Shown here: positions 1,740 to 63,408 of the stretch, one piece after another
How positions within the stretch are numbered: the first letter of the stretch is position 1
Layout of the letters: each line of letters starts with the position of its first letter
The notes under the pieces: model-generated
What the model was told of the DNA's origin: nothing
The model's input: only the letters and a program-made list of their open reading frames with translations
Databases searched by the model: none
Origin: Chiloscyllium plagiosum
Taxonomy: Eukaryota
Direction: 5' to 3'
Assembly (NCBI RefSeq): GCF_004010195.1
Contig: NC_057755.1
Coordinates: 1,229,306 to 1,293,305, forward strand
Length of the DNA stretch: 64,000 nucleotides
Translations under genes and position numbers: made by a program

Positions 1740-2165
1740 TTATATTCATCACAGTATGTGGGCATCATCGGTGAGGCCAACATTTATTACCCAGACAGCA
1801 ATTAAGAGTCAACCATATTGCTGTGGGACTGTAGTTACATATAGACCAAACCAGCTAAGTATGACAGTTCCCTTCTCTAAAGGATATCAGTGAAGCAAAT
1901 GGGTCTTTCTGACAAACAATGATGTTTCATGGTCTCCATTACGACTCCTAATTTCAGGTGTTTTTTTATTGAATTCAAATACCACAAACTGCCATTGCAG
2001 CATTCAAACCCAGACACTAGGACCTTATCCGGTGCCTCTGGATTAAGAGTCGACAGTGTGGTGCTGGAAAAGCACAGTAGGTCAGGCAGCATCTGAGGAG
2101 CAGGAGAATCAATATTTCAGGCAAAACAGTCTAGTGATATTGCCACTAGGCCATCACTTCCTCAC
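1740..2165 (-). mobile_element. Old SINE of a second family, with a family A fragment inserted at 2047-2127
   Basis: Shares ttaagagtcaacca/ccttc...aaagga/gtgaa(g/c)ca(a/g)at blocks with 59905-60165 (-) and, reverse-complemented, with 18370-18640 and 63423-63680 (+). Confidence 0.55.
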
Positions 2166-2588: not shown

Positions 2589-2710
2589 TTCCTGATGAAG
2601 GGCTTATGCCCGAAACATTGATTCTCCTGCTCCTCAGATGCTGCCTGATTTCTTTTCCAGCACTACACTCTCGACTCTGATCTCCATCATCTGCAGTCCT
2701 CACTTTCTCC
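2589..2710 (+). mobile_element. Hammerhead-bearing short element, family A
   Basis: ttcCTGATGAaGGGCttatGCCCGAAAcattg...ctcactttctcc; flanked by a 15-bp direct repeat cactttggaca(g/c)acc at 2563-2577 and 2711-2725. Confidence 0.8.
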
Positions 2711-2844: not shown

Positions 2845-3068
2845 GGAGAATGTGGGATTGAAGATGCTGGAGATCAGAGACAAGAGAATGTGGTGCTGGT
2901 ACAGCAGGTCAGCGAGGTCAGCGAGCATCCGAGGAGCAAGAAAATCGACATTTCAGGCATAAGCCCTTCCTTAGGAATGACTGAAAGGCTTGTGCCCAAA
3001 ACGTCAATCTTCCTGCTATTGGATGCTGCCTGACCTGCTGTACTTTTCCAGCACCACACTCTCGACTA
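2845..3068. mobile_element. Family A element with inverted halves
   Basis: Minus copy 2845-2977 abuts plus copy 2978-3068; both halves are homologous to 2589-2710. Confidence 0.75.
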
Positions 3069-4130: not shown

Positions 4131-4132
4131 GC

Positions 4133-5778: not shown

Positions 5779-6014
5779 GTAAGTGCAAGAGCCACATAAT
5801 GAATTTGTCTTCAGAACAGCTCAATTAATTGACATTATATTAACATAGACTGTCATAGAACAATAAAAGATGATACAGGACTTAAATAAATAAAGCTAAA
5901 AATATTGTGAATCTGAAACATAATACAAGGAGCGATTTGCAGACAAGTAACATGACAGACTGAAGAGTAACTTGAATTAATTTAACCAATTGCAAGAAGA
6001 TAAAATGATCCTTT

Positions 6015-8032: not shown

Positions 8033-8237
8033 TAGGCAGTAATGAGGGTGATAATAAACAATTTTCCATGTTAGTATGCATTGCACCACCAGAACTATGT
8101 CGGACAATGCATCTATTATTCTAAATGTTAAGGAAGGGTTCATCTAACTTCAAGTGAGATTTTCCCAGATTTCTCGTACTTGTCTTATGTGGCTAATCTT
8201 TCATAAAGTGATATTGCACTGTGTATGCACATCCATC

Positions 8238-8790: not shown

Positions 8791-10264
8791 ATTCCTCCTT
8801 GTGTTTCCATAGAAATTACTTGCATGTGTCGTTGACTGACTGTTCATCTCTTTACTCGCATCCCTTGTCCTTCATAAGAACTTAATGCATGGTGCTGGGT
8901 GCCTTCCAAGAAAGGGAGCAAGGGCAACAAAACGCTGCTTTGTGGTTCTGTCTGGAGCTCAATAAGTCATTTGATATGTTTAATGACACGTGTTATGACT
9001 CTTACTTTAATAACATGCAAAATACGAAAGCTGTTGGAGGTAGAAATGGCTTTCATGGGACTAATTTCAAGAGACAGATCATAATACTCCAAAAGGCCAA
9101 TCATCTAATATGACCTCTTCTTTAACAAATTCCTTTTTAAACTTTACTTTTTGACTTGTCCGCAGAGAACAACTCTCCTGTCCCACAGCTTGATACTACT
9201 TCTCCCCCAGTGCCTACTGCCCTCAGGCCTCCTTCAATTTCTTTCAGTCTTGGCCTACATCAGAGCAGTGTGGCCTGCTGCCCTAGCTGTGTGCGTTACC
9301 TTAGAACGTGCTTATCTGAATGCAGTGCCATTCCTGGCAATGTGACAAGATCTTGGGGACTGTGCTAGATATAGGCTCCGGCTTATATTTCAAGTTGAGT
9401 CGTGATACTAAGCTACAGGTTTGAAATAACTGCTCAGATGCCTCTATCCCTATGCCTCTCACACTCTATCCCATCACCACCTCACCTTTATTTCCTTGTG
9501 CATAGCTGTGGCCAACCAGCTTGGAGTCAGTCAACCAAACTGAGAAAATTCTAACCTCCTGGTTATCTTTGCTTTTGTTCAAAAATCCACATAAAGTCAC
9601 AATGTCACAGACACAACACATACGGCAAAGACAGTAATATGGAATGTCTTATAAAAAGACATCTCAGTTTACGATGGTGCAAACGTGACATATGGCAAAA
9701 TAAATAAATCTGTGTAAAAGCACATCGTACTTTAAACAGTAAGTTCAGAGTTCACATACAATTAGTGTCTCAGACATGACCAGTGGCAAAGTCACTATGC
9801 ATCAGACAATTTGTTGAAGGGTAGAGGCATTGACATATAAGATTTGTTTCTATACAATGTTATATCAAGCAAATAAATACACATTCTGTAGGGTTACGGG
9901 CCAGTTTATACACAGGCCAGGCTACTGTCAAGATAGCTATACATGTCACAGAGCCATGGTACACACACAAGACACAGTCTGAATACAAGGGCAAGTCCAC
10001 ACACTAAAGCGGAATCCATACTTGAAGGCGCAGTCCACACACGAAGGCAGAGTCCACACACGGAGCTGTGGTCTACCCACAAGGATACAATCCACTGGAA
10101 AGGCATGACAAACGCTCTGGCTCTGGCTCTCGCGCGCTCGCTCTCTCTGGCGCGCTCTCTCTCGCGCGCGCTCTCGCTCGCTCTCTCATACTCCATGTAC
10201 TAGGAGTTATTCCAGAACCCACATGCTGAAACAGCAGTGCAGAGGCCAAGTCCCTGTCATTAAG

Positions 10265-12530
10265 AAATGAGATAACAAAAATCCAGAGAAAGTATATTCC
10301 TGTCAGGGTGAAAGGGAAGGCTGGTAGGTACAGGGAATGCTCGATGACTAAAGAAATTGAGGGTTTGGTTAAGAAAAAGAAGGAAGCATATGTCAGGTAT
10401 AGATAGGATAGATCGAGTGAATCCTTAGAGTATAAAGAAAGTAGGAGTACACTTGAGGGAAATCAGGTGGGCGAAACAGGGACATGAGATAGCTTTGGCA
10501 AATAGAATTAAGGAGAATCCAAAGGGTTTTTACAAATCTATTAAGGACAAAAGGGTAACTAGGGAGAGAATTCCTGAAGAAGGGCATGTGCCCGAAACGT
10601 CGAATCTTCTGTTCCCTAGATGCTGCCTGACCTGCTGTGCTGTTCCAGCAATAAAGTTTCAGCTTTGATCTCCAGCGTCTGCACACCTCACTTTCTCCCC
10701 TCAAAGATCAGCAAGGTGCCCTTTGTGTGGAGCCACAGAAAATTGGGGGGATACTAAATGAATATTTTGCATCAGTATTTACTGTGGAAAAGGATACGGA
10801 AGATATAGACTGTAGGGAAATAGATGGTGACATCTTGCAAAATGTCCAGATTACAGAGGAGGAAGTGCTGGATGTCTTGAAACGGTTAAAAGTGGATAAA
10901 TCCCCAGGACCTGTTCAGGTGTACCCGAGAACTCGGTGGGAAGCTAGAGAAGTAATTGCTGGGCCTCTTGCTGAGATATTTGTATCATCAATAGTCACAG
11001 GTGAGGTGCTGGAAGACTGGGGGTTGGCAAACATGGTACCACTATTTAAGAAGGGCGGTAAAGACAAGCTAGGACAAATGTTCGGCACGACATCGTGGGC
11101 CGAAGGGCCTGTTCTGTGCTGTATTGTTCTATGTTCTAAGCCAGGGAACTATAGACCAGTGAGCCTGACCTCCGTGGTGGACAAGTTGTTGGTGGGAATC
11201 CTGAGGGACAGGATGTACATGTATTTGGAAAGGAAAGGACTGATTTGGGATAGTCAACATGGCTTTGTGCGTGGGAAATCATGTATCACAAACTTGATTT
11301 AGTGTTTTGAAGAAGTAACAAAGAAGATTGATGAGGGCAGAGCAGTAGATGTGATCTATATGGACTTCAATAAGGCATTCGACAAGGTTCCCCATGGGAG
11401 ACTGATTAGCAAGGTTAGATCTGATGGAATACAGGGAGAACTAACCATTTGGATACAGAACTGGCTCAAAGGTAGAAGACAGAGGGTGATGGTGGAGCGT
11501 TGTTTTTCAGACTGGAGGCCTGTTACCAAGTGAGTGCCACAAGGATAGGTGCTCGCATCCAAAACATAAATGATTTGGATGCGAGCATAAGAGGTACAGT
11601 TAGTAAGTTTGCAGATGACACCAAAATTGGAGGTGTAGTGGACAGCGAAGAGGGTTACCTCCGACTACAACAGGATCTGGAGCAGATGGGCCAATGGGCT
11701 GAGAAGTGGCAGATGGAGATTAATTCAGATAAATGCGAGGTGCTGCAATTTGGGAAAGCAAATCTTAGCTGGACTTATACACTTCATGGCAATGTCCTAC
11801 GGAGTGTTGCTGAACAAAGAGACCTTGTAGTGTAGCTTCATAGCTCCTTGAAAGTGGAGTCACAGGTAGACAGGATAGTGAAGAAGGCGTTTGGTACGCT
11901 TTCCTTTATTGGTCAGAGTATTGATACAGTCGTTGGGAAGTCATGTTGCAGCTGTACAGGACATTGGTTAGGCCATTGTTGCAATATTGTGTGCTGTTCT
12001 TCTCTCCTTCCTAGCGGAAAGATGTTGTGAAACTTGAAAGGGTTCAGAAAATATTTACAAGGATGTTGCCAGGGTTGGAGGATCTGAACTACCGGGAGAG
12101 GCTGAACAGGCTGGGGCTGTTTTCCCTGGAGCGTTGGAGGCTGAGGGGTGACCTTAATAGAGTATTACAAAATTGAGGGGCATGGATAGGATAAATAGAT
12201 AGTCTTTTCCCTGGGGTCGGGGAGTCCAGAACTAGAGGGCATAGGTTTAGGGTGAGAGGGGAAAAATATAAAAGAGACCTAAGTGTCAAGTTTTTCTCAC
12301 ACAGGGTGGTGCATGTATGGAATGAGCTCCCAGAGGAAGTGGTGGAGGCTGGTACAATTTCAACATTTAAGAGGCATTTGGATTGGTATATGAAAAGGAA
12401 GGGTTTGGAGGGATATGGACTGGGTGCTGGCAGGTGGGACTAGATTGGGTTGGGATATCTGGTCAGCATGGACAGGTTGGACTGAAGAGTCTGTTTCCAA
12501 ACTGCACATCTCTGAATCTATGACTCTAAG
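10265..12530 (+). mobile_element. CR1/HER1 LINE, 5'-truncated ORF2 with 3' UTR
   Basis: ORFs give LNEYFASVFT, DKSPGP, GNYRPVSLTS, SQHGFVRGKSC, DFNKAFDKVPH and KFADDTK; stops and frameshifts. Confidence 0.95.
10571..10699 (+). mobile_element. Family A hammerhead element inserted in CR1
   Basis: attc-CTGAAGA-a-GGGCA-tg-TGCCC-GAAACGTC-gaat; interrupts the CR1 between agggagagaa and cctcaaagatcag. Confidence 0.85.
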
Positions 12531-18242: not shown

Positions 18243-18369
18243 AGAAAGTGAGGATTGCAGATGCTGGAGATCAGAGTCCAGAGTGTGGTGCTGTAAAAAC
18301 CCAGCAGGCCAGGCAGCATCCGAGGAGCAGGAGAATCAACATTTTAGGCATAAGCCCTTCTTCAGGAAT
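18243..18369 (-). mobile_element. Family A element
   Basis: agaaagtgagg...ggcataagcccttcttcaggaa; core partly mutated. Confidence 0.8.
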
Positions 18370-19277
18370 CAGATTCTGATCTTAAAGTTCCATGAATAAA
18401 TCTGAAATTAAGTGTTTGGTAACGATTGTGAAACAATCATTAATTGTCATTTTAAAAAATCCATTGGTCACCCATCCTTTATGAAAGGAAATTTGATTCT
18501 CACTTGTTTTGGTATATATGGGATTCCAAACCTGCAGAACCAGTTTGGTTGATTCTTAACTGACCTTTGGAATACTCAAATAAGTCAATAAGTCTTCTAG
18601 GAAATTAGGATGCTACTGTTGAACATTCCTATGAAAAGAATTTATAATGGGAAACGTTGATATCTTAGGCCAGAGTTGCACATGTATATGTTGACAGTGC
18701 TTCAGTATCTTAGGGGATCACTCCTCAAGTTTTGCTTTCACTTTAGACCCACACTCCTGACATTTGGTCACTGCAAGGCAGACAGTTCAAAGGATCTCCT
18801 TTTTAGCTTGCTCTTAAGCCTGCCCATGGTGCCCATTAATAGGTCCAGACAGTGGGCAGTTGAGAGGGTCTTACCCCTGTTTCCTGCTTCCATCTATACC
18901 CGGTGATGCTGGAGACAGATTGGGAAATGTTCTCCAATACACTTGAGGCCTTCTGCAACCGTTAGAGCACATCATCATCCCTCAAAACAACATTTCAAAT
19001 TAATCTTGTTAAATTTGCTTTCAAGATTTATTTTTGCTACAGTGTCTCTTTAAGGCATTGATCATTTGATGAATTGTCTATTTTATTGCTTAACTTTAGT
19101 GTGCCCTGTCTCTTGAGCAAAAAGTTCCACGCCAGATCATGAGGACCAAACGGACTGCATTCATAGCGTGGCTAAGCAGGTTAATCATTAACCTTTTAAT
19201 TCCTTTCGGTCTTAATTTAGATCCTCATTCCCAATGCAGTCTGTTTGGGACCTGTCTTGTTGTCCTATCCATTGCTG

Positions 19278-19400
19278 GGAGAAAGTGAGGACTGCAGATG
19301 CTGGAGATCAGAGCTGAAAATGTGTTGCTGGAAAAGCGCATCAGGCCAGGCAGCATCCAAGGAGCAGGAGAATCAACGTTTCGGGCATGAGCCCTTCTTC
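19278..19400 (-). mobile_element. Family A element with 13-bp TSD
   Basis: ctatccattgctg at 19265-19277 and 19400-19412. Confidence 0.85.
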
Positions 19401-27221: not shown

Positions 27222-27912
27222 TGTGCAAAGTTAAAAATCTCACAACACCAGGTTATAGTCCAACAGGTTTAGTTGGAAGCACTAACTTTTGGAGTGCTGC
27301 TCCTTTGTGGGATATAAATGAATTAATGTTATTTCTGCAAGCATAAATTCTGATACAGAACAGGAATGAGAAAATACATATTCAGCAAAAAGAAAGGATA
27401 TGTTAGCATGAGACGTGAATACAGAACAATGGTGGATGTGTGGGCAAACAGGAAAACATCTGTTTTCCCCGCTTGCACAGAGACACAGGAACAAACCCTA
27501 ATTAAAGAGGTCAAAGTGGCCTCTGGATGGAAATAGATGCTGATAGAAGAAAATATATGCCTAATCAATAATCTACAATAGACTGACGTCAAACACCCTT
27601 ATGGGACTCAGAGATAAGAGTTTGTCACGGACAAGACAGGATAAACAGAAGTTGTGGGATAAGTCTTAAGGAAATCTGTGACGTAAGCGAAGCAGGGAAC
27701 AGACAATGGAATAAGGAAAACATATGAGAAAAAACAGTATAAATTGCAAGGGTTTTTTGGGATATACTGTGCATTTTATCATTGCCTTACCTGGTAATGA
27801 GACAAAGCACCCACCTATAGGTGTATAAATAAATGGCGGATTCAGATATTTGTCTCGGACTGAAATTATTAAAGTGAGTGAGCTTTTGTTTCTCACACCT
27901 TCATCAGGGGTT
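27222..27912 (-). mobile_element. Family B element split by a solo LTR
   Basis: 27222-27305 and 27898-27912 rejoin to the reverse complement of CTGATGAAGGAGCAGCACTCCAAAAGTTAGTG... Confidence 0.8.
27306..27897 (+). mobile_element. Solo LTR (ERV-like, family L-1) with 4-bp TSD
   Basis: TGTGGG...CTCACA termini; TSD cctt at 27302-27305 and 27898-27901; TATAAATAAA near 27824; end sequences shared with 39547-40215. Confidence 0.85.
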
Positions 27913-27964
27913 GATGTGTGAGAGAATGAGATCATGCCTGTGTGTGTGTGTGTGTGTGTGTGTG

Positions 27965-27996
<32 letters not shown>

Positions 27997-28586
27997 ACGT
28001 GTGTGTCTGTCTGAAAGAGGGAGAGTGAGACCACGTCTGTGTGTGTGAGTGTAAGAGTATGTGAGTTGGTGAATGTGAGTGTGTGTGACTGAGAGTATAT
28101 GGGAGTGCATGTGTGAGAGAGAGTGTGTGTATGAGATTGTGATAGTCTGTGTGGAATTGTTTGAATGTGCATTTGAGAGTGACTGCGTGCAAGCGTGTGC
28201 ACGTCAGTGTGGACGTCTGCATGGGCGTATGTGAGAGTGTATGTGCGTGTAAAGGACTGAATGTGGCATGAGAGGGTGTGTGTGTGTGAAGGACTGAATG
28301 TGGCGTGCGTGGGTGTGTGTGTGTGTGTGAGGACTGAATATGGCACGCGAGGGTGTGTGTTTGTGAAGGACTGAATGTGGAGTGCAAGAGTGTGTGTCTA
28401 CACGCGTGAGAGAATGAGCGAATGAAACTGAGGGACTGTGTATGGTTTGTGGATCATTACTGGGGCAGGGATATAAACACGTGGTTTCCATCGAGTCATG
28501 TTATGGAGTGACAGCATTGGCGCTGAAACTGTGCAGCCAGATGGACGCTCACAGATACACACAGTCATTCATTCTCTTTCTCATAC

Positions 28587-28625
<39 letters not shown>

Positions 28626-29786
28626 CACACACATTCTCTCTCTCTCACTCATGCGCGCACACACACACACAGGCATGGTCTCTCTCACACACATGCATGG
28701 TTTCTCACATGCACGCACACACAGGCATGGTCTCTTTCTCACACACACACAGGCAGTGTCTCTGTCTCACGCGTGCACACATACACACAGGCATGGTCTT
28801 CCTCTCGCGCATATACATACATACAGAGGCGTGGTTTCTCTCTCTCACATGCATGCGCACGCACACACACACACACAGGCATGGTCTCTCTGTCACACAC
28901 ACAGAGGCTTGGTCTTTCTCTATCTCTCACACACACACTCTTGCACACAAACACACACAGACATGGTGTGTTTCTCGCTCTCTCTCACAGACACACACAC
29001 ACACACACAGAGGCATGGTCTCCGTCTCTCCCACACAGAGGCATGATCTCCCTCTCTCTCTCGCACACGCACACACAGAGGCATGGTCTCTTTCTCTCAC
29101 TCACTCACACACACACACACACACAGGCATAGTCTCATTCACTCACATACAGACATGGACTTTGTCTTTCTCTTTCACATACAGACACAGAAGCATGATC
29201 TCTCTCTCACATACACACGTGCGCACACACACACAGGCGCAGTCTCTATCTCTCTCTGTCTCTCTCACATGTGCACACAGAGGCATGGTCTCTCTTTCTC
29301 TCTTACTCACACACACAACACAGAGGCATGGTCTCACTCTCATTCAAACACAGGCATTCTCTCTGTCTCTCTGTCTCTGTCTCTCTGTCTCTCTCTGTCA
29401 CACATACCTTCGCTTTCTCTCTCTGTCACACATACCTTCGCCTTCTCTCACACACTCTAACACATACCTACACTCACAAACATACTCTCTCACATTCATG
29501 CACACACACTGACTCTCTCTTGGGCATGCTCACTCTCTTGCAACACTCCCTTTCTATTGTGCACACACACTTCTATGCACACACACTTCCTTTCATGCAC
29601 ACAATCATTATTTCTCTCACGCAAGCTCATACTGTCTTTTCTTCTCTCGTACATACACACATGCTCTCTCACACACACATACACACACACACACTCTCTC
29701 TCTCTCTGTCACGCACACCTTCGCCTTCTCTCACTCACACACACTGGCAAAGTCTCTTACACACTGTAACACATACCTACACTCAC

Positions 29787-30477
29787 AAACATGCTCACTC
29801 ACGTCAATAATTTCAGTCCAAGACAAGATCTGAATCAGTAGTGTCATTTATTTCACTCTTGCAAGAGGATGTGGTGTCCACTGTCCACAAGGCAGGACAC
29901 ACACACACTGAATTCAACTAGTACACAACATTTATGTAATTTGGTTCCTATTCTTTCATCCCATTGCTCCTTCCCTGCTTACATCTCCCACCTAAGACCA
30001 GTGCCCATTACTCTTGTTTACCTCTTGCCTTATCCGGCCTTGTCTCCGACAAAATGCTTATTCTGGCCTCACAAGGCCGTTTGGCCACATCCTGCTGCAG
30101 TCCATTGTTAGGTATATCCTCCCTCACTTGTTTTGACCTTATGACCTCATGATGTCTTGATTGTGGTTTGTTCTTGTTTTTGCAGAAGCAGGAAATAGAT
30201 GCTTATAACTACTGTTTGTACAGGCATATCTAGCTTAACCCCCTCCCCTCACAGGACCTTATCTATTTGTCTGTAACATTTACCATTGTTGCAGGTACAT
30301 TTCATTCTTGCATGTACATTTTAGCTAATACAAAAACAATTATGTATTTCCTTCACTTAGTTTTCATTCTTGTTGACTCAGCTCTTGGCTGAAACAATTA
30401 TACACTGCTATGAGTTCATTTACCTTGCATAAGTAAATATGATTGCAGAAGTAACACTACTTTACCTATATCCCACA
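29787..30477 (-). mobile_element. Solo LTR, family L-1, reverse orientation
   Basis: Reverse complement closely matches 39547-40215 (tgtggg.tataggtaaagtagtgttacttctgcaatcata; caaccaagagctgagtcaacaagaatgaaaac). Confidence 0.85.
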
Positions 30478-33400
30478 CACTCATGCACGCACACACTGAC
30501 TCTCTCTCTTGGGCATGCTCACTCTCTTGCAACACTCCCCTTCTATTGTGCACACACACTCTTCTTCTCTCCTATGCACATACACACACTTCCTTTCATG
30601 CACACAATCATTATTTCTCTCACGCAAGCTCATACTGTCTTTCCTTCTCTCACACATAGACACACACACAATTTCTCTCTTGCAAACTCTCTCTCTGCAG
30701 GCACACACACAGAAAGTACGTACACACACTCTTCCTCTCACATACAGACACACTTTCACACGCACACACATTCTTTCACGTGTTCACACTTTCTCTCTCG
30801 CACACACACACTCTCTGATGCACACACTCTTCCACATGCATGCACACTCTTTCTCACATGTGCACTTTCTCTTGCACGCGCACACACATTCTCTCTCTCT
30901 TGCGCACATGCGCACACTGTTGCATATGCAGACACTCTCTTTCTCTTGCACATGCACTCTCTGTCATATTCACACACTCACTCTCATTCTCTTGTACACT
31001 CTCTGAGGCACACACACTCGCGTATGCACTCACTCTTTCGCGCATGCACACACTTCTCTCTCGTGCACACTCTCTCACACACGCTCTCCTCATTCGCATC
31101 TGCACACTTTTTCTCTCTCTCACAAGTGCACACACTATCTCATGTGCTCACTTTCTCTGACGCACGCATACATTCTCTGTCTTTTGCACACACGCACTGC
31201 CTTTCTCTTTCACACACACATGCACTCTTTTTAGCACACACACATTCACTCTCTCTCGCATACATGCACTCTTTGTCTCTTGCACACACATTCTCTCTCG
31301 CATGCACACACTCTTTCGCCCACTTCTCACACTCACACATGCATCCCCACCTCTCTCTCTCTCATGCAGGTACACAATCACGCTTTCTCTCTCGTAAGCC
31401 CTCTCTCTCTCTCGCATTTGAATGTGCACACTCTCATGTTCGCACACACTGTCTCTCTCACATTCGCGCACACTCTCAAGTTTGCACACAATCTCATGTT
31501 TGTGCGCTCTCTCTCATGTTTGCACACACTCATGCTCGCACATGCTCTTTCTCTCGCACAGTCACACCCACTCTCTTTCTCTCACATACACACTCTGTCG
31601 CACGTGCACACACACACACTCTCTCCCTCTCTCTCCCGCATGCACTCTCTCTCTCACATGCACACACACTCTTTCTGTCACACGCACACACCTTCTCTCT
31701 TTCCCATGCAGGAACACTCTCTCTCTCTTTCTCTCTCCTCTCTCTCACATGCATGCACAATCTCTGTCTATCATGCACAAACTCTCTTTCTATCACACGT
31801 TCTCTCTTGCAAATATGTAGTCTCTCTTGCTCTCGCATACATGTTCACTCTCTCTCTCGAATGCACCCACTCTGTCACGGATGCACTCTCTCTCTCACTC
31901 GCAAGAACACACTTTCTCTCTCACAGACATTTCCTTTCTTGTATGCACATGGTCTCTTTCCCTCTCTCCTATGTGCATACACTTTCTCTCATGCATGCAC
32001 ACAGAGTCTCTCTCACATGCACACTCTATCTCACAAGCAAACGCTCTCTTGCATGCACATACTCTTTCACCCATGTGCGCACACTCCTTCTATCTGACAT
32101 GAACAATCTCTCTCACAGGTGTGTACTCTCTTCATGCAGACACACATTTTCTCTCTCACATGTGCACATTCTATTTCTCTTGCATACGCACACTTTCTTA
32201 CACACACATGCACTCTCTTTCTCATGCAAGTACACACGCTCTTTCTCTCGTGCATGCACACACTCTCGCGCACACATACACACATGTTTTCTCATTCGTG
32301 CACACTCTTTGTCTCTCACATGTACACACTCTTTCTCTCGCATGTGCACGGTCTCTCACTCATGCACACATGCAATCTCTCTCTTGCTTGTGTCTGCATA
32401 CACTCTTACCCTTGCGCAAGTGCACTCTCTCTCTTTCTCACTCACTTACCACACAGTCTTTCTCTCGCATGCATGCTCTTTCTCTCACACATGCACACAC
32501 TTCCTGTCATGTACACACTCTCTCTTCCTCTCTCACGTGCACACACTTCTCTCTCGCAAGCAGTCTGTCTCGCACACAGTCTCTCTCACACACTCATGCA
32601 TGCTCAACTCTCTTTCTCTTGTGCATGTGCACACTCTTGCACATGACACACTCTCTCTCATATACCCTCTGCCATACACTCACACACACATACTCTCTCT
32701 TTCTTTCTCCTACACACGCCCACACATTATTTCTGTTGAGTAGGTGCACACTCTTCCTCTCATAAACGCACACACTCTGTCTCACAAGCACACACTTTCT
32801 TTCTTTCTCTCTTTTACATACACTCTCTCTTCTCGCACATGCACACCCTATCTCTCGCATGCTCACAGTCTCTCTCTCTCTCTACCACACTCCGCATACA
32901 CACACACTCTCTTTCTCTTGTGCATTGTACGTTCTTGCACATGACACTCTCTCACAAACACGCTCTTCTTCACACATGCACACACTGTCTTCCTATCTTT
33001 CTCTCACATGCACACACCATCTCTCATGCACACACTCTCTCTCATGCACGCACACACACCCTCTTTCTCGCACACGTGCACCCATTCCCTCATGCATGCA
33101 CGCACTCTCTCTTTCACACAAATGCACACTCTCTCGTACGCATGCACTCTTGCTCTCTCTCTCATGCATGCACGCACGCACTCTCTCAGGAAAAGATTCT
33201 CTTTCTCTCTTGTGCACACACAGACTCTTCTTCTCACACATACACATACTGTGTCTTGCAAGCACAGCATTCTCTTGCACACAATCTTTCTCGCAAGCAG
33301 ACACTTTCTTTCTCTCTCGCATGTAAAGACTCTTCTCGCATGCATGCACACTTTCTCTCTAACTTGCGCACATTCTCTTTCTCATGCACAAACTATTACT

Positions 33401-34932
33401 CTTGCACACTTCCTCATTCTTTTTCCCTGTCACATGCGCACATTCTCTCTCACACACTCACGCTGTCTCTTTCACTCATGCATGCACACAGTCTCTCTCA
33501 CATGCACGATCTTTATCTCATGCACAAACACACTTCCTCGCATGTATGCGCACTCTTTCTCTCAGACATGCACACACACTTTTTCTCTGTCGCATGTGCA
33601 TACTCTTTCTCTCTTGCATGTGTATACTCTCTCACTCTCACATGCACACTCTCTCCCACACAGGCACACATTCTCTCTCACACATGCGCACACTCATTCT
33701 CTTGCACATGCACACACTCATTCTCTTGCACATGCACACACTCTATCTCACACTTTCTTCGCGTACACACTTTCTCACTCGTGCACACTCTCATTCTCTC
33801 ACAAACACGAACTGTTTCTCTCTTGCACGCTTACACGATCTTTCTCTCTCTGTCACACATTCACACTCCTCGCATATGTGCAAACTCTCTCACTTGCGCA
33901 CATTCTCTTTCTCTCTCGCACAATCTCTCTCTCACACACAGTCTCACTCTTTTTCTCTCTCATGTGTGCACACTCACACACGTATGCTCTCTCTTTCTCT
34001 CATGCATGCACATGGTCTCTCTCTCTCTCACATGCATGATCTGTATCTTACGTGCAAACACTCTTTCTGACATGCACACTCTCTCTGTCACATGTGCACA
34101 TTCTTTCTTTCTCACATGTGAATACTCTCTCCATCTCTCACGTGCACTCACTCTCACACACAGGCATACATTCTCATTCACCCGTGCACACGCTTTAATT
34201 GTCTTGCACATGCACACTTTCTCCCACATACGCACACACTCTTTCTCTGGCACATGCACACACACTGTCTCTCACATGCACACATTCTCTGTCACGTGCA
34301 CACACTGTTGCACACGCGCGTTCTTTCTCTCATGCACACACATTCTGTCTCACACATGCGCACTCTTTCTCTCACACACGGACTCAAACCATTTCTCTCA
34401 GAACGTTCACTTTGTTTTTCTGTTGCGTCTGCACACTCTTTCTCTCTGACATGTGAATACTCTCTCCCTCTCTCTCACACGCATCCTTCCTCGCATATGC
34501 CCACATTCTCTCACGTGTGTGCACAGTCTAATTCTCTTGCACACGGACATATTCTCTCACTCTCACATGCATACATGCACTCTCTCGCGCATGCATGCAC
34601 TCACATGCAGACATTCTCTCTCATTCATGCACACTCTGTCTCGCACGCACACACTCTCACACACACACACACTCTTGCACATGCGCGCACTGTCTCATGC
34701 ATGCACACACTCTTCCTCTCACAAGGACACAAGCACTCTCTTTCTCTCACACATGCACTCTCTTTCTCTCACACATACACATTCTATCTCTTATAAGCAC
34801 ACACTCTCTCGTGCACGCATACACTCTCTCTTTCGTGTATGCATACACTTTCTCGTGCATGTACACACTAGTAAGCATACACTCTCCTCTCTTGCACGCA
34901 CACTCTCAAAAGCACACACAGACACTCACTCA

Positions 34933-35170
34933 AGGGGCAACTTTTTCACGCTGAGGGTGGTACGTGTATGGAATGAACTGCCAGAGGATATAGTGGAGGC
35001 TGGTACAATTGCAACATTTAAGAGACATTTGGATGGGTATATGAATTGGAAGGGTTTGGAGAGATCTGGGCCGGATGCTGGCAGGTGGGACTAGATTGGG
35101 TTGGGATATCTGGTCGGCATGGACGGGTTGGACTGAAGGGTCTGTTTCCATGCTGTACATCTCTATGACT
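34933..35170 (+). mobile_element. CR1/HER1 3' tail inserted in microsatellite
   Basis: RGNFFTLRVVRVWNELPEDIVEAGTIATFKRHLDGYM plus 3' UTR. Confidence 0.9.
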
Positions 35171-35689
35171 ACATCTCTCGCACACGCACACAGACTCCCT
35201 CTCTTACGCAGGCACATACTCTCTCTCTTGTATGCACACACACATACTCCTGCTCTCATGCATGCACACACACACACTCGCACAAATGCACGTACTCTTT
35301 CTTTCTTGAACATGCGCACACTCCCTCTCTCTCTCAAATGCATACTCCCGCTCTCGCGTACACACACACACATCCTCTCTCGTGCATACACACATTCACA
35401 AGCATGCACTCTCCAACTCTCTCGCACGCACATTCTCTCTCTGGCAAGCACGAGTATTCCTTCTCTCGTGCATGCACACACTCCCTCTCTTGCGCGGACA
35501 CACAATCTCTCTCTCACATACGCACACCTCCCCTTGCGCGGACACACAATCTCTCTCTCACATACGCACACCTCCCTGGCTCTAGCATGCACACACTATT
35601 TAATGGAGCTTGAATATTTGGAAATCCCAATACATTTGGTCATTCCGTGTCCCTGTGTAACTGTGTGAGCAAGTGTGTGTGTGTATATA

Positions 35690-36530
35690 TACCACCAGAG
35701 CCCTGCATTATTGGGTCAAATATGTCTTCACTCCAGCAGTTATACCATATTCAAAAATGTATTCCAGATCCTTGTTCACAAATCACAGAAAGCCAATGTG
35801 ATGGTTTCACCAAATTTGAAATGTGCTTTTAAGAACATGTTCCCCTCTCCTGTGCTGACAGAATTCCTGATCCATAACTGAATCCTTCTCTGTTCCTGTC
35901 CCCCCACCATGTTAACATTGTACCATTTAGTCTGTATTGTCCTTCCTCAGTCTAACATCCAAACGCCATCACTTCCCATCTCACTGTATTCCATCTGCAG
36001 GAGGCTGAGATGATCCTGTACAAACTGTGAGGGGCTGTTTTAATCTTCAAAACCAGGACGAAGGATTCTGAAGGTGTCAGCCATCTTAGTTATGTTGACG
36101 GCAGCCATTTCATGTTAGCCAGGGCTGACATTGACTTTACATATAGGGAGAGGCAAGAAAGAGTGGGGACTTGGGGAGTGCGTGTGTATCTGAGTGCAGT
36201 TTTGATTCACCAGAATGATAGCTGGACAGCAAGGGATCTCTGGGGCGGGAGGGAAATGACCCCTACCCAGGGTTGTGTCTCTTGGATTTAGAAGGATCGG
36301 AGGGAATGAAAGTTTTTGAGACAATAACAGAAATGGCTGGGATAGACAGAGAGAAAGGCTTCTGCTGCTTCTGGGTCTAGGATGAGAATCAACATCTAAA
36401 ACTCGAACAATACTCTTAAACAGTTTCAAGATGAAAATGAAGTTAAAAAGCCTCCCATTTCTCTGTGTGATATTGCACACTATGTCTTACTCACTCACTC
36501 ACTGAATATGTCTAACCCCCTTTCTGTATC
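35690..36530 (+). repeat. Local duplication, copy 1 (copy 2 at ~40730-41578)
   Basis: Long colinear matches, e.g. acaaatcacagaaagccaatgtgatgg and tttagaaggatcggagggaatgaaagtttttgagacaataa. Confidence 0.9.
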
Positions 36531-37150: not shown

Positions 37151-37313
37151 AACAGGTCAGGCAGCATCCGAGGAGCAGGAAAATCAATGTTTCGGCAGGA
37201 GCCTTTCATCAGGAATGATATACCTGCTCTTCGAATGCTGCCTGACCTGCTGTGCTTTTCCAGCACCGCTCTAATCTTGACTCTAATCTCCAGCATCTGC
37301 AGTCCTCACTTTC
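37151..37313. mobile_element. Family A element with inverted halves and 17-bp TSD
   Basis: accaactcaaaaatgag at 37134-37150 and 37314-37330; the minus half carries ttcCTGATGAaAGGCtcctGCCGAAAcattg. Confidence 0.85.
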
Positions 37314-38409
37314 ACCAACTCAAAAATGAGCTGAGCAACACACGACTCAACTGCTGTTTGTGGAGGTTTCCATGTGTCCTGAAAGATGCAAGAGAAACAG
37401 GCAGATACTGGAAGTTAACCATTACTCAACATTTAGGAGGACTCAATGTGTTCCCAGATTTTACCAGGGATTGAAGAAGTATCGTGAGGAAAAGGTAATT
37501 CTCAGATTATTGTAAGTCTGCACTGAACAATTAAAATTGACCGGCGATCAATTCCTTTTGCTGAAAGAGTTCCAAATCTTGACTCACCCTTTTATGTGTT
37601 GAAGTCAGAAAATACACTATTTTACTGACTCCCCACTGTCCTACGTTGACGACTATCCTCCTCTGTTTTCCCCTTTCACTGAAGAGATTTCCCCTTTTAT
37701 AATGCACTGCCATACTGGTTACAATGCTGCCTATCTCACACTCAGTTATCTTCAGCCCTGTTTAATGACACTGAAACCAATAGACACACAAAGTTCTATG
37801 AAGAGCTTTGTTTAATTGCAGGTACATTATTTTCATTTATTTGGAGACAACATACAACTTGAACACACAGCAGTTCAGTGTGGGATTTGAGAAACCCTTG
37901 ATTTTGTGACGGGCCTAGCCACATAGGATTCTGATCCAATACTGCAAATCTACAGTTCAGTCGCTGAGGTGTTTCAGTTTTTGAATATTTGAGTCTCTCA
38001 GATATTTGGAGCTTGGAATGTAAGGCAGACGTTGCTGGAATGTGACATTGTCTCTCTGCATTCATTGTAAATAGGTTCTGGAATTTGCATTTTAATCACC
38101 TTCAAAGAGCTTCTCCATTTCCTACCTCTGCTAGGATCTATGAATGGAAATGTATTTTGACACATTTGCTGAAATGAGTCAGGCAGATATTCTTAAGTTT
38201 GTCCACAGCCACCATTTTATATTAGCATCGCACTGACATTGACTTTATAAATAGGGAAATGCAAGAGAGACTGGCAACATCTATGCAGTTTGAAAATATT
38301 GAACATTTGTTCCCTAAAAACAACCAAAATTCTCTGACCCTACCAACAATTACAAAGGGAGAATGATAGACTGGGTGAATGGGCAAAACTGTGTGGGATG
38401 AGGTATTGA

Positions 38410-38612
38410 TTAAATCACCCACCTCCCCCATCCTGTCCTCATCAAACACACTCAGGACAGCTCCATGAATGTCCCTGTCCAATTTCTCCATCTGAATCTC
38501 TCAAAGTCTGGGGAGAATGGAGTTAGATACAGAATAAATATCCCTCTACACTGCCCCATCAAACTCCACCAGGACAGGGATAGCATGGGTTAGATACAGA
38601 GTAAAGATGCCT
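38410..38612 (+). repeat. Degenerate minisatellite (ccctctacactg.cccatcaaacact.ccaggacagggacagca.gggttagatacagagtaaag), resuming at 39490-39546 and 40216-40270
   Basis: The same unit is visible on both sides of the CR1 and LTR inserts. Confidence 0.65.
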
Positions 38613-39490
38613 CTGGAATTTTTTGTGGATGTAACTCTGAAGATGGACGAGGGAGATCCAGTACATGTAGTGTACCTGGACTTTCAGAAAGCTTTTGATA
38701 AAGTCCCACATAGGAGGTTAGTGAGCAAAATTAGGGCGCATGGTATTGGGGGCAAAGTACTAACTTGGATTGAAAGTTGGGGTGTTCTTGTACAGCAGTC
38801 AATGAAGGTAAGCATGCAGGTACAGCAGGTAGTGAAGAAGGCTAATAGCATGCTGGCCTTCATAACAAGAGGGATTGAGTATAGAAGCAAAGAGGTGCTT
38901 CTGCAGCTGTACAGGGCCCTGGTGAGACCACACCTGGAGTATTGTGTGCAGTTCTGGTCTCCAAATTTGAGGAAAGACATTCTGGCTATTGAGGGAGTGC
39001 AGCGTAGGTTCACATGGTCAATTCCTGGAATGGTGGGATTACCTTACACTGAAAGACTGGAGCGTCTAGGCTTGTATACCCTTGAGTTTAGAAGACTGAG
39101 AGGGGATCTGATTGAGACATATAAGATTATTAAAGGATTGGACACTCTGGAGGCAGGAAACATGTTTCCGCTGATGGGTGAGTGCCGAACCAGAGGTCAC
39201 AGCTTAAAAATACGGGGTAGACCATTTAGGACAGAGATGAGGAGAAACTTCTTCACCCAGAGAGTGGTGGCTGTGTGGAATGCTCTGCCCCAGAGGGCAG
39301 TGGAGGCACCAGTCTCTGGATCATTTAAGAAAGAGTTGGATAGAGCTCTCAAGGATTGTGGAATTAAGGGTTATGGAGATAAGGCAGGAACAGGATACTG
39401 ATTAAGGATGATCAGCCATGATCATATTGAATGGTGGTGCAGGCTCGAAGGGCAGAATGGCCTACTCCTGCACCTATTGTCTATTGTCTA
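38613..39490 (+). mobile_element. CR1 LINE 3' part with internal deletion
   Basis: ORF 38607-39401: VVYLDFQKAFDKVPH fused directly to the post-RT region (LVRPHLEYCVQFWSP...TRGH); (ctattgt)n tail. Confidence 0.92.
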
Positions 39491-47866: not shown

Positions 47867-50800
47867 NGAAAGCGACAGGAAGTATGGAGTTAAATGGAAA
47901 GATAAATAGCAGGATAGCATGTGTGCAGGTGGATTTAAGCTTGCGGCTGACTAGGAATTCAGCAAAAAGCAAGGAAGACTTAGGACATCTTATGACTTCC
48001 AATATCTCTAATGATAAGAAAGTTAGCATTAAGGCACTTACCTGAATGCTCGTAGCATTCCTAACAAAGTAGATGAACTAACGGCACAGATCATCGTGAA
48101 TGATTATGATGTGGTAGGCATCACAGAGACGTGGTTGCAGGGGGTTCAGGACTTGCAGTTAAACATCCAAGGATTTACAACTTATCGAAAAGACAGGGAG
48201 GTGGGCAGAGGGGGCGGGGTTGCCTTGTTAGTTAAGAACAAAATTAAAATCTATGGCACTGAATGACATAGGGGCGGATGATGTGGAGTCTGTGTGGGTG
48301 GAATTGAGGAACCACAAAGGCAAAAAAACCGTAACGGAAGTTATGCACAGACTTCCTAACAGTGGTCAGGACCAGGAGTGCAACATGTACCGGGAAATTG
48401 AGAAGGCATGTCAGAAACGCAAGGTCACAGTGATCATGGGGGACTTCAATATGCAGGTGGACTAGGTAAATAATGTTGCCAGTGGATCCAAAGAAAGGGA
48501 ATTCATGGAATGCTTACAGGATGCCTTATTGGAACAGCTTGTCATGGAGCCCACAAGGGAGCAGGCTATTCTGGACTTAGTGCTATGTAATGAACCAGAC
48601 TTTATAAAAGATCTTAAAGTAAGGGAACACTTAGGAAGCAGCCATCATAATATGGTAGAGTTCAGTCTGCAGTTTGAAAGAGAGAAGGCAAAATCGGATG
48701 TAATGGTGTTACAGTTAAATAAAGGTAATTATGAGGGCATGAGAGAGGAACTGACTAAAATCGACTGGAAACAGAGCCTAGCGGGGAAGACAGTAGAGCA
48801 AAAATGGCAGGAGTTTGTGAATATAATTGAGGACACAATACAGAGGTTCATCCCCAAGAAAAGATAGATTATCCGGGGAGGGCTTAGACAGCCATGGCTG
48901 ACAAAGGAAGTCAGGAAATGTATCAAAGAAAAAGAGAGATCCTATAAAGTAGCCAAGAGCACTGGGAAATCAGAAGACTGGGAAGGCTACAAAAACAAAC
49001 AAACAAACAAACAGAGGATAACAAAGAGAGAAATAAGGAAGGAGGGGATCAAATATGAAGGTAGGCTAGCCAGTAATATTAGAAATGATAGTAAAAGTTT
49101 CTTTCAATACATAAGAAACAAATGACAGGCAAAAGTAGACATTGGGCCACTTCTAACTGATGCTGGAAGGCTAGTGATGGGAGATAAGGAAATAGCTGGA
49201 GAACTTAATAAGTACTTTGCGTCAGTCTTCACAGTGAAAGACATGAGTAATATCCCAACAATTAAAGGGAGTTAGGGGTTGAGTTGAGAATGGTTGCCAT
49301 TACAAAAGAGAAAGTGCTAGAAAAGCTAAAAAGGTCTTAAAATTGATAAATCTCCTGGCCCCGATGGGCTACATCCTAGAGTTCTGAGGGAGGTGTCTGA
49401 GGAAATAGCGGAGGCATTGGTTGAGATCTTTCAAAAGTCACTGGAGTCAGGAGAAAATCCCGGATGATTGGAAGATCGCTGTTGTAACCCCCTTGTTCAA
49501 GAAAGGATCAAGACAAAACAAAAAGGAAAATTATAGGCCAATTAACCTCACCTCAGTTGTTGGTAAAATTCTAGAATCCATCGTTAAGGATGAGGTTTCT
49601 AAATTCTTGGAAGAGCAGGGTCGGATTAGAACAAGTCAACATGGATTTAGTAAGGGGAGGTCGTGCCTGACAAACCTGTTAGAATTCTTTGAAGAGGTGA
49701 CAAGTAGGTTAGACCAGGGAAACCCAGTGGATGTGGTCTATCTAGGCTTCTAAAAGGCCACACGGGAGGCTGCTGAGGAAGGTGAGGGCCCATGGTGTTC
49801 AAGGTGAGCTACTGGCATGGATTGAGGATTGGCTGTCTGACAGAAGGCAGAGAGTTGGGATAAAAGGTTCTTTTTCAGAATGGCAGCCGGTGACAAGCGG
49901 TGTCCCGCAGGGTTCAGTGTTGGGGCCGCAGCTGTTCACATTCCATATTAGTGATCTGGATAAAGGGTCTGGGAGCATTCTAGCGAAGTTTGCCAATGAT
50001 GGGAAGTTAGGTGGACAGACAGGTAGTACTGAGGAAGTGGGGAGGCTGCAGAAGGATCTAGGCAGTTTGGGAGTGGTCCAGGAAATGGCTGATGAAATTC
50101 AATGTGAGCAAATGCGAGGTCTTGCACTTTGGAAAAAAAGAATACAAGCATGGACTACTTTCTAAACGGTGAGAAAATTCATAAAGCCAAAGTACAAAGG
50201 GATCTGGGAGTGCTAGTTGAGGATTCTCTAAAGGTAAACGTGCAGGTTGAGTCCGTGATTAAGAAAGCGAATGCAATGTTGTCATTTATCTCAAGAGGGT
50301 TGGAATATAAAAGCAGCGATGTGCTACTGAGACTTCATAAAGCTCTGGTTCGGCCCCATTTGGAGTAGTGTCCAGTTTTGGGCCCCACACCTCAGAAGGA
50401 CATACTGGCACTGGAGCGTGTCCAGCGGAGATTCACACAGACGATCCCTGGAATGGCAGCTCGAACATAAGAGGAACAGCTAAGGATCCTTGGATTGTAT
50501 TCTTTGGAGTTTAGAAGGTTAAGGGGAGATCTAATAGAAATTTACAAGATAATACATGGCTTGGAAAGGGTGGATGCTAGGGAGTTGTTTCCGTTAGACG
50601 AGGAGACTAGGACCCGTGGGCACAGCCTTAATTAGAGGGGGTCAATTCAGAACAGAAATGCGGAGACATTTCTTCAGCCAGAGAGTTTGGGCCTGTGGAG
50701 TTCATTGCCGCGGAGTGCAATGGTGGCCGGGACGCTAAATCTCTTCAAGGCAGAGATTGATAAATTCTTGACATCACGAGGAATTAAGGGCTACAGGGAG

Positions 50801-51272: not shown

Positions 51273-51827
51273 GTTATGACACACATTTGGAAGAGGTTAG
51301 ATTTGAACCCAGGCTTCCTGGCTCAGAGGTAGGGACATTATCACTATGTCTCAAGGACCCTTATACTTTCAGCAGCATTATTTAGGCTTCTTCAGTTTAG
51401 CTATGACTCATTGTTTTAAATAAGGATTAAAAATTGTAATCAGAGACCTTACCACATCTCTGACTTATTGTAACAACATGATAGATGTTATTTTGAGGTG
51501 TAATGATTGGTCCAGATTCAAATTCTTCTCTGAAGTGACCTTGAACTATAGCACTGTGATATCATCATTTACCGTGGCCTGTAAAATACATCAAAGAATG
51601 TGCCTTTTCCCTTCCAATTGCTGACCTGTGTAAATGCAGAAGCTGCGTTGGTATTGTTCATTGGAAAAATCTTTACTTTCTAATCTTTCTCTCTCATCCA
51701 TCAGACTCTGTGTAAAACTTATTATTCTGAACTAGGTTTTCCTCATTTGTCTCAATATTTCATGTTTTTTTTCTTGTTTTGGTGACGGATCTCTAAGGAT
51801 GTTCTTCCACATTGATGGTAATAAGAT

Positions 51828-52770
51828 CTTAAGACCATAAGAAGTAGGCATAGAATTAGACCATTCAGCCCATTGAGTCAGCTCCATCATTTGATCATGG
51901 CTTATATGTTTCTCAACGCCATTCTCCTGCCTTCTCCTTGTAACCCTTAATCTCCTTCCCAAACAAGAACCTATCTCGGTCTTAAATACACTCAATGACT
52001 TGCTCTCCACAGCCTTCTTTAGCAATGTGTTCCGCAGATTAACTGACCTCTGGCTGAAGAAATTCCTCCTCATCTCAGTTCTAAGGGTCATCCCTTCACC
52101 CAGACTGTGCCCTGGGACCCTCGTCTGTCCAACTATTGGAAACATCTTCTCCAAGTTCACTCTATTCAGACCTCTCAGTATTCTGTAAGTTTCAATCAGA
52201 TTCCACATCTTCCAAATTCCAGTGAGTACAGCCCCAGAGTCCTCAACTGCTCATGTGATAAAAAACTTTTAGTACCAGGATCTTGTAAACCTCCTCTGGA
52301 CCTTTCCAATGCGAGCACATTCCTGCTTAGATACAGGGCCCAAAACTACTTATGGTATTCCACATCTGACCAAAGCCTCAGCAGCACATCCCTGCTCTTA
52401 TATGCTAGCCCTCTTGAAATGAATGGTAACATTGCATTTGCAACTACAAACTGAAACTGCATGTTTAACAGAACCCTGAAATAGACCTCTCAAGTTCCTT
52501 TGTGCTTCAGATTTCTGCAGCCTTTTACCATTTACAAAATAGTCTGCGCCTTTATTCTTATCAAAGTACATAACCTCACACGTTCCCACACATTGTATTC
52601 TGATATTTCTTTGCCCACTCTCCAAGCCCTTCTGCAGCCTTCCTGAGTCCTCAACAATACTTGCTCCTTTACCTACCTTTCTGTCATCTGCAAATTTAAC
52701 AACAATGCCCTCAGTTCCTTCACCCAGATCATTGAAGTATAACATGAATAGTTCTGGTCCCAACACTTTT
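51828..52770 (-). mobile_element. CR1 LINE 3' fragment
   Basis: LGPELFMLYFNDL...KFADDRK and LIETYRILRGL...RRNFFSQR on minus. Confidence 0.9.
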
Positions 52771-58960: not shown

Positions 58961-59597
58961 GCTATACCGAGGAGGATCTCATCAGATTGTGCGTCTCCCG
59001 GGCAGCGATCGGAAACAGGCCCTTCGGCCGATCTCGTCTATGCTAACCAGGTTTCCTCAACTGAACTAGTCCCGTTGGGCCCACATCCCCCTCTGAACCC
59101 TCAATGTTCATATGCCTGTCCAAAAGACGGTGGCACTTCAGAGTTGACAGGACACCAGGGCAGGATGAGATTCATCCAAGGGTTCTGACTGAAGTGAGAA
59201 GTGTTTGGTATGTTTTCGTGCTGTATATCTCTGCGATTCTAAGATTTGCACAGCGTCTGACCAGAAGCTATGGAGTCCTGTAAGGTAGTGAATGCTGAAC
59301 ACCGCTTCATGATTATTCAACAGTTGCAGTTCGTAGTGCTGAGGTCAATGAGACATTTCATTGTTCTACTTCTGTATTGTTGGCACTGTAACCAATACCA
59401 CAATGCAAGGTGACATACCCCATTCCTAAATGTGATCACAATGGTGTTGATATGAAGGAAAAACTGACTAAAACTGATATTGTAACTAGACTAAGGCTAT
59501 GATAAATAACCAGCTGGTGCATTTTAAAAGATCATGCAGTTGAAAAATACATTCTGTTTATATCAAAAACTGAGTGCACAGATCTGTCTATAGCTCA

Positions 59598-59692
59598 TTC
59601 CTGAAGAAGGGCTTATGCCCGAAACGTCGATTCTCCTGCTCCTTGGATGCTGCCTGACCTGCTGCGCTTTTCCAGCAACACATTTTCAGCTC
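59598..59692 (+). ncRNA. Family A element with intact minimal hammerhead core
   Basis: ttc-CTGAAGA-a-GGGC-ttat-GCCC-GAA-ACGT-C-gattctc. Confidence 0.75.
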
Positions 59693-63220: not shown

Positions 63221-63234
63221 TCACTAGATTATTC

Positions 63235-63408
63235 TGAGCTGAAAATGTGTTGCTGGAAAAGCGCAGCAGGTCAGGCAGCATCCAGGGAACAGGAGAATCG
63301 ACGTTTCGGGCATGAGCCCTTCTTCAGGAAGCCTGTTCCCTGGATGCTGCCTGACCTGCTGCGCTTTTCCAGCTCTGATCTCCAGCATCTGCAGACCTCA
63401 CTTTCTCC
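63235..63408. mobile_element. Family A element with inverted halves, intact hammerhead and 14-bp TSD
   Basis: tcactagattattc at 63221-63234 and 63409-63422; the minus half reads ttcCTGAAGAaGGGCtcatGCCCGAAACGTCgatt. Confidence 0.88.

Follow-up and report, generated by a model that had tools for sequence, protein, structure and literature searches.

Solo pseudo-LTR copies with a minimal hammerhead motif in Chiloscyllium plagiosum and their likely origin in Penelope-like reverse transcription

Short repeats that begin with a minimal type I hammerhead motif are scattered through a 64-kb stretch of Chiloscyllium plagiosum DNA (the window). The surroundings of related copies elsewhere in the genome indicate that the ~128-bp repeat unit, termed family A, consists of the pseudo-LTR (pLTR) and a ~34-bp tail that belong to an autonomous element of ~3.6 kb, a Penelope-like element (PLE) of Neptune type, and that the unit is present at both ends of this element. 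Solo Penelope pLTRs with minimal hammerheads are an already known kind of sequence. We consider it likely, with a probability of roughly 0.7, that the solo copies, or stubs, are dead-end products of the PLE's own reverse transcription and not a self-propagating SINE. Their fixed 5' end, the pairing of tailed with tail-less arms, and junctions that are precise at a single nucleotide (A0) point to run-off of cDNA followed by a template jump. The stubs are a large natural record of PLE replication, and run-off and jump could be probed directly, as the RNA can be defined and an ORF is nearly intact.

The repeat unit and its parent element

Unit positions are counted from the first T of TTCCTGA (position 1), and A0 is the base preceding it. 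The original prediction listed nine family A copies in the window, and all nine loci are present (Table 1), with stem II loops that vary as described (TTAT, TCAT and ATGT). Its statement that copies start at a hammerhead holds for the motif itself, but the core, ACGT and C17 are intact at only three of the nine loci (10571, 59598 and the minus arm of 63235); the remaining six are decayed or truncated in the motif. Three of the four copies credited with TSDs of 13-17 bp do have them (19278, 13 bp; 63235, 14 bp; 37151, 17 bp), whereas the fourth (2589) has 11 bp. The quoted length of ~125 bp suits the ~128-bp unit but not the focal copy, which is the 95-bp tail-less form and is flanked only by a 6-bp repeat that lies inside the null range. 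As had been noted, poly(A) tails are absent from the copies, and ARAGORN found no tRNA in them (0 genes).

In the focal copy, the core CTGAAGA (59601-59607) is followed by an extra A at 59608, a stem II formed by GGGC/GCCC around a TTAT loop (59609-59620), GAAA (59621-59624) and the helix III palindrome ACGT (59624-59627). Stem I is weak, pairing ATTC with GATT around a U-U mismatch. Head-to-head inverted pairs occupy three of the nine loci (2845, 37151 and 63235); in the last of these the tailed plus arm begins at position 38. Insertion of the 10571 copy was accompanied by a ~7-bp target deletion in the LINE that holds it, and 15 of 18 flank matches span the empty site. No PLE coding sequence of family A was found in the 64-kb window.

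Table 1. Family A loci in the window and parts of the focal copy (window positions)
Feature	Position	Strand	Remark
Focal solo pLTR copy, tail-less form	59594..59692	+	unit positions -3 to 95; long TSD absent
Initiator-like TCATTCC	59595..59601	+	A59597 = A0, where 5' ends of copies most often fall; inferred transcription start
Minimal type I hammerhead, focal copy	59597..59632	+	predicted cut after C59628
Remaining pLTR, presumed PLE 5' UTR with short upstream ORF	59633..59692	+	stops at tail-less 3' boundary (unit ~91-97)
Old tail-less copy, 5'-truncated (~16-93), inside another repeat	2046..2126	-	
Old tailed solo copy	2589..2710	+	palindrome decayed to ACAT; 11-bp TSD (2563/2711) with 15 extra bases
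Head-to-head pair	2845..3058	.	minus arm 2977-2845 tailed, plus arm 2983-3058 tail-less; decayed cores
Young tailed solo copy, subfamily with 4-bp stem I	10570..10698	+	inside LINE
Tailed solo copy	18243..18372	-	GAAA mutated
Tailed solo copy	19278..19400	-	begins at position 6 (CTGA lost); 13-bp TSD
Head-to-head pair	37152..37316	.	short minus arm and tailed plus arm; 17-bp TSD
Head-to-head pair	63233..63408	.	tail-less minus arm 63330-63233, hammerhead intact; 14-bp TSD

The parent element was recognized from copies of the unit elsewhere in the genome. A GIY-YIG frame lies upstream of the unit at two loci (L003 and L009), and several genome copies run upstream into a 3'UTR. An RT fragment from one unit-linked locus gave 27,920 first-look candidates in the genome, and many of the 30 RT loci that were fetched have the unit ~1.5 kb downstream (for example, L057). 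Another locus (L059) holds a stop-free stretch of 627 aa with matches to RVT_1 (E=1.2e-8) and GIY-YIG (E=2.7e-4; 21.6 bits, slightly below the Pfam cut-off of 22.6), together with DKG at residue 14, YIDD, and the linker CNRRRCNTC (CX4CxxC) at 475. A CX2-5CxxC linker between RT and EN is described in PMC8557442 as a mark of the Neptune and Nematis groups. The nearest named proteins are from elasmobranchs (Chiloscyllium punctatum, 83%; Rhincodon, 70%). The unit also occurs 5' of the ORF, where the stretch beyond position 128 contains an ATG at 166 and goes on into a Pro-rich region and then the RT. Because the unit both follows the GIY-YIG frame and precedes the ORF, we take it to be pLTR plus tail. 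This architecture was tiled from overlapping loci with many N gaps, no single contiguous full-length copy being seen, and the Neptune-type label is based on the RT, the Cys linker, the C-terminal GIY-YIG, and the tail and inversion features.

To gauge abundance, we used an unselected sample of sixteen arbitrarily placed 100-kb blocks (1,566,367 non-N bases of a 3.56-Gb genome). It contains 239 arms in 180 loci, with 6-17 per block or ~115 per Mb, which extrapolates to ~3.4-4.6x10^5 unit loci per genome; nine loci per 64 kb is therefore close to the genome average. The units cover 1.4% of sampled bases, and this share is what is at stake for annotation, because it would be mislabelled as SINE. 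A single arm is present in 127 of the 180 loci, and 50 have both orientations. Coverage reaches 198 in the unit, compared with at most 27 in the adjacent 3' body and at most 8 in the 5' ORF. The ~7-fold excess of stubs over body reflects a pLTR that is very short and begins almost at the hammerhead.

Solo copies do not form a lineage of their own. A tree built from 162 arms, of which 112 are solo and 50 linked to PLE sequence, requires 42 label changes, compared with a shuffled mean of 42.8, and 214 of 500 shuffles are as low; clustering of the solo label is therefore absent. This tree uses only 90 columns, enters two arms per locus as two rows and has low resolution, and the label "linked" depends in part on a heuristic of pyrimidine content. 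Of the common solo alleles, 181/183 are also seen in linked arms, and linked arms are found in five of six sequence clusters, the sixth having four members.

These data bear on the SINE and retrozyme identities, which were considered and rejected. The repeat is not a recognizable SINE, since ARAGORN found 0 tRNA genes, Rfam gave no tRNA, 7SL or 5S match, and there is no A-rich or simple-repeat tail. A SINE with its own source genes is contradicted by the missing solo lineage (42 versus 42.8) and by the finding that only 2 of 183 alleles are missing from linked arms. A non-LTR retrozyme would be arranged head to tail, but tandems account for 0/9 window loci and are rare elsewhere (one two-monomer tandem occurs in the unselected sample), and copy ends do not lie at the cleavage site. 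The original prediction is thus supported in its minimal type I hammerhead with a palindromic helix III and in its Penelope machinery, as the unit sits on an RT and GIY-YIG element of the same genome. The very high number of copies that it thought possible is supported as well, the 1.566 Mb sampled having 180 loci, or ~4x10^5 per genome by extrapolation. A SINE-like family is not supported: the repeat has no Pol III-type head and no lineage of its own, and its 3' ends lie at set positions of the PLE. Nor do the data support a non-autonomous, retrozyme-like family separate from the PLE, since solo and linked copies are intermixed and the unit is the pLTR plus tail of an autonomous PLE in this genome. 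That the unit might be merely a Penelope pLTR had been named beforehand as an outcome that would count against the prediction, and this is what was found.

Ends and junctions of the copies

The 5' ends of family A copies concentrate at a single point. Among 153 arms that reach +10 and have a locatable core, 50 run on into the pyrimidine-rich 3'UTR, and 35 of the 103 unlinked arms have their 5' end at A0 or T1, which precede the hammerhead core by 3-4 nt. The rate of 5' ends is ~0.11 per nt at A0/T1 and 0.004 within the unit, a difference of ~30 times. Because 72 of the 239 arms start inside the unit, beyond +10, the peak is clear but not exclusive. Only 2/239 arms start at positions 30-34, the cut site, which rules out copy ends defined by cleavage.

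The same nucleotide stands out in sequences that continue past it. TTATCT is present at -32..-27 in 38 of the 50 linked arms, and the majority frequency jumps at A0 from 0.53 (-25..-1) to 0.88 (0..31). At 30 loci chosen for containing 5' ORF sequence, the upstream unit reaches position 4 or less in 12 cases, 11 of which begin there while one continues into 3'UTR; the others are cut by N gaps (6 loci) or truncated within the unit (12 loci). From these observations we infer that A0 is the 5' end of the RNA. TCATTCC fits the Inr consensus. Transcription start within the pLTR is known for Penelope (PMC2377424). A 3' splice site at A0 was considered and rejected, since not all subfamilies retain the upstream AG. 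A cap-templated G might precede A0, and G is found there in 8/52 cases, from an "unlinked" set that included old-subfamily linked copies.

Among indexed runs that contain the unit, none is recorded as RNA. Reads from one poly(A) single-cell run (~2% sampled; species match uncertain) include 2,087 that match the unit on both strands, and a second run gave 0. Because 95% of these reads continue into unrelated sequence, they fit passive transcription inside host RNAs. Read starts or ends do not pile up on the unit in that poly(A) run, whose reach excludes short RNA without poly(A).

The 3' ends fall into two classes, with 102 of the 239 arms ending at 76-100 and 108 at 110-133, and they cluster at two fixed points, ~91-97 (tail-less) and ~128 (tailed). 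The two classes are combined non-randomly in inverted loci. Of the 50 loci with both orientations, 47 are two-arm loci, and every one of these is head-to-head (47/47). Tailed and tail-less arms are joined in 38 pairs, both arms lack the tail in one pair, no pair has two tailed arms, and eight have an unclassed arm. Mixed pairs therefore make up 38/39 of those that can be classified (p=7e-11). A TSD of at least 9 bp surrounds 23/47 pairs. A tail and an inverted copy are known PLE features (PMC3846280, PMC8557442), and the strict pairing observed here fits one priming site per strand.

Some copies have internal PLE sequence directly in front of the unit start. In targeted loci, selected for holding PLE body, this is true of 17/94 young unit starts, and the 17 junctions use 15 donor positions (237-640, 1812 and 1884). 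A0 is exact in 15/17, where the join shows microhomology of 0-3 nt or a few added bases, and one 10-15 bp TSD encloses the whole insert in 6/10 junction loci tested. A strict test found such junctions at 0/53 young starts in the unselected sample; from that census the internal-junction class alone was used, as 3'UTR-linked starts are undercounted where old-subfamily 3'UTRs mismatch the reference. The single right breakpoint shared by the junctions argues for cDNA that ended at A0 and then resumed elsewhere, rather than for independent deletions. At loci chosen for 5' ORF, a second unit follows the ORF piece within ~520 nt in 26/30.

Several loci have further structure. Donor points in L091-L120 cluster at tiled positions 237-290 (~19/26), possibly because a 5' RNA fragment that is short, or shielded by protein, has its 3' end there. 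Inserts of ~0.8-1 kb in L078 and L088 consist of an inverted tailed unit, an internal Pro-rich/RT piece and a tail-less unit that starts at A0. Monomers of ~340 bp, comprising the unit, ~140 nt of 5' ORF and ~70 nt of 3'UTR, occur in L114, L115, L116, L119 (element-strand 1386-1850) and L271 (~2260-2660, minus strand), some of them in tandem or beside N gaps; one junction is common to L116 and L119. These monomers are candidates for a true retrozyme-like derivative that has two hammerheads in cis.

The hammerhead motif and the origin of the solo copies

The motif has the features of a minimal type I hammerhead: a CUGANGA/GAAA/UH core, an extra nucleotide before stem II, G10.1-C11.1 and a palindromic helix III. 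A minimal-hammerhead descriptor detects 96 motifs in the 1.6-Mb sample plus window and 1-2 in each of five shuffles. An Rfam search, put forward with the original prediction as a check, matched no hammerhead family at E<=1 and returned only weak miRNA hairpin matches on inverted pairs. Five motif families share a constant core but differ in stem I, stem II and palindrome (ACGT or AGCT), which vary in concert. Stem I consists of 2 bp, a U-U mismatch and 1 bp in the focal subfamily, and of 4 bp in the youngest subfamily. In dimers, active-like folds (-9.5 to -14.7 kcal/mol) are not the minimum-energy structures, being 10-15 kcal/mol less stable than alternatives at -24 to -27 kcal/mol. Within copies, core positions decay at 0.057 compared with 0.058 outside the core, and CpG sites at ~0.2-0.25. 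The motif is kept across families, yet the cores of individual copies decay neutrally; for this reason the hammerhead is probably functional in the RNA of the master element, where it would be under constraint, and idle in the stubs. The youngest subfamily has also gained AATAAA ~50 nt past the predicted cut (window 10649-10654), in addition to its perfect 4-bp stem I.

The end and junction data suggest the following route from element to stub. RNA would start at A0, an Inr-like site with TTATCT at about -30, and if so the hammerhead would form the first 32 nt of the transcript. The PLE protein would nick both target strands and prime at two internal sites near the 5' end of an uncut template RNA, and each cDNA would run off that 5' end. 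A run-off cDNA joined to the target would give a solo copy, and one joined to the cDNA of the other strand would give an inverted pair. If it jumped instead to another template position, a junction element would result, and a jump to the RNA 3' end would produce a normal long copy. The analogy for these steps is a Poseidon element studied in vitro and not a Neptune element. As the solos lack the downstream ORF sequence that would bind protein, if the anole element is a guide, they probably could not be mobilised again.

Somewhat short of even odds, in our judgement, is the broader proposal that the element replicates in an LTR-like manner. A "strong-stop" cDNA of ~94 or ~128 nt would be made from the RNA 5' end and would then jump to a new template. 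A jump to the RNA 3' end would regenerate the pseudo-LTR, possibly through a ~32-nt redundancy left when the hammerhead of the 3' copy cleaves. The ~4x10^5 stubs might then be failed jumps, and [unit][ORF piece][unit] elements mis-jumps that could seed retrozymes.

Stubs could instead be ordinary 5'-truncated copies that were primed in the 3' pLTR of long PLE RNAs, with RT arrested shortly beyond the core by the hammerhead structure or a bound protein and no 5' run-off. Most PLE insertions are indeed 5'-truncated with a single terminal repeat, according to bioRxiv 10.64898/2026.07.22.740005 and PMC8557442, and in our data 50/153 arms that reach +10 run into 3'UTR while body coverage declines smoothly from the 3' end. 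However, an arrest should occur at the 3' edge of the stem, and the observed stop is a single nucleotide beyond the entire hammerhead. The same nucleotide is where 5'-pLTR copies begin (11/12) and where conservation steps, ~30 nt after TTATCT, and family B behaves similarly with respect to TATAAA. We therefore regard truncation as unlikely. Less probable still is a dedicated non-autonomous short RNA, SINE- or retrozyme-like, that is transcribed from pLTR-derived loci and supplies most solos in trans. Possible sources, such as tandems of ~345 bp or elements of the form [unit][5' ORF piece][unit], do exist: the second unit lies within ~520 nt at 26/30 loci, donors cluster at 237-290, L116 and L119 share a junction, and the unselected sample contains the two-monomer tandem. 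Vertebrate retrozymes also derive from pLTRs (bioRxiv 10.64898/2026.07.22.740005). Yet no solo-specific lineage or alleles are present, junctions are mostly unique (15 donors in 17), ends miss the hammerhead cut site, and 0/9 window loci are tandem.

A further alternative bears on the motif alone and not on the origin of the stubs. The likeness to a hammerhead might be vestigial or coincidental, with the first 32 nt conserved only as promoter or protein-binding sequence. This would account for the missing Rfam hammerhead match, the weak stem I of most subfamilies, active-like dimers that are less stable than alternative dimers, and the absence of cut ends from copies and reads. Nevertheless, it is very improbable given that the core is constant in five motif families of the genome whose stems and palindrome change together, and given that a related PLE hammerhead cleaves with the help of protein (PMC11167929).

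Known systems and other repeats in the window

The closest described motifs are the minimal hammerheads found in the pLTRs of metazoan PLEs (Cervera and de la Pena 2014, PMC4209133), which have the same core, extra nucleotide and G10.1-C11.1, the same palindromic 15.2-16.2 and no real helix III. They too are mostly single motifs on truncated PLEs, with some opposite-strand pairs, and that study describes low activity even as dimers. The shark copies differ in that stem II has only 4 bp and in that the fixed ends of solos are mapped here. Numbers differ as well: ~4x10^5 unit loci, most with decayed cores, compared with ~4,000-9,000 motifs described for coelacanth and Xenopus (PMC4209133).

Among EN+ PLEs, the Neptune clade (PMC8557442, PMC3846280, PMC2377424) shares the RT, the CX2-5CxxC linker and the C-terminal GIY-YIG, a pLTR that holds the 5' UTR, head-to-head inverted copies and a one-ended tail. 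Partial tandems, an inverted 5' copy and a tail of 30-40 bp are described for EN+ PLEs in the same papers. In contrast to published Neptune PLEs, the pLTR here is very short and begins almost at the hammerhead. Those papers invoke self-priming or EN resolution for the inversions, whereas twin priming at two RT start sites fits the shark copies better.

The Poseidon element PAc of Anolis (Frangieh et al. 2024, PMC11167929) also has a hammerhead near the pLTR-ORF junction and two start sites ~34 nt apart that yield the tail, with both strands primed and the RNA uncut. In vitro, priming by the anole PLE takes place on both strands, at two internal sites that bound the tail, and unprocessed RNA is the substrate; its hammerhead needs protein and is dispensable for insertion in vitro (PMC11167929). 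PAc belongs to another clade, and the start sites in the shark element are upstream of the main ATG. The main text of PMC11167929 does not contain "template switch," "strand transfer" or "solo," and the run-off and jump proposed here thus extend its model.

Non-LTR retrozymes are likewise non-coding, hammerhead-bearing, related to pLTRs and dependent on PLE enzymes (Cervera and de la Pena 2020, PMC7229834; Li et al. 2026). However, retrozymes consist of monomers in head-to-tail tandem, give rise to circular RNA and usually contain canonical type I hammerheads, whereas the loci here are scattered single units or inverted head-to-head pairs with ends that do not follow the cut site. Li et al. 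(bioRxiv 10.64898/2026.07.22.740005) tie tandem retrozymes to pLTRs and include one chondrichthyan. Neither the run-off-and-jump model nor a description of the shark element was found in the titles, abstract openings and passages of the openly available papers searched.

Two other hammerhead families have copies in the window. Family B stubs lie at 3729 (+), 15493 (-) and 61837 (-)/61850 (+); they have stem II GGAGC/GCTCC and the palindrome AGCT, and their 58 cores in the sample plus window show the same pattern of solos, inversions and tails. TATAAA is found 37-40 nt before the core in 15/17 linked family B copies, and only 6/41 unlinked arms extend past -9. A tblastn search of the 700 nt upstream of these 17 linked copies gave no match to the family A protein. 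A family D hammerhead at 272 (-), presumably Poseidon-like, has a 6-bp stem II and AC-rich downstream sequence; hammerheads of this family are mostly attached to upstream element sequence.

A long low-complexity tract rich in CA/CT (~27700-35700) shows a strongly negative GC skew and contains numerous spurious stop-free frames. Decayed LINE RT fragments, which we take to be CR1/L2-like, are present at 10511-11299, 38538-39398, 49586-50528 and 51735-52767, and the 10571 copy lies inside the first of these.
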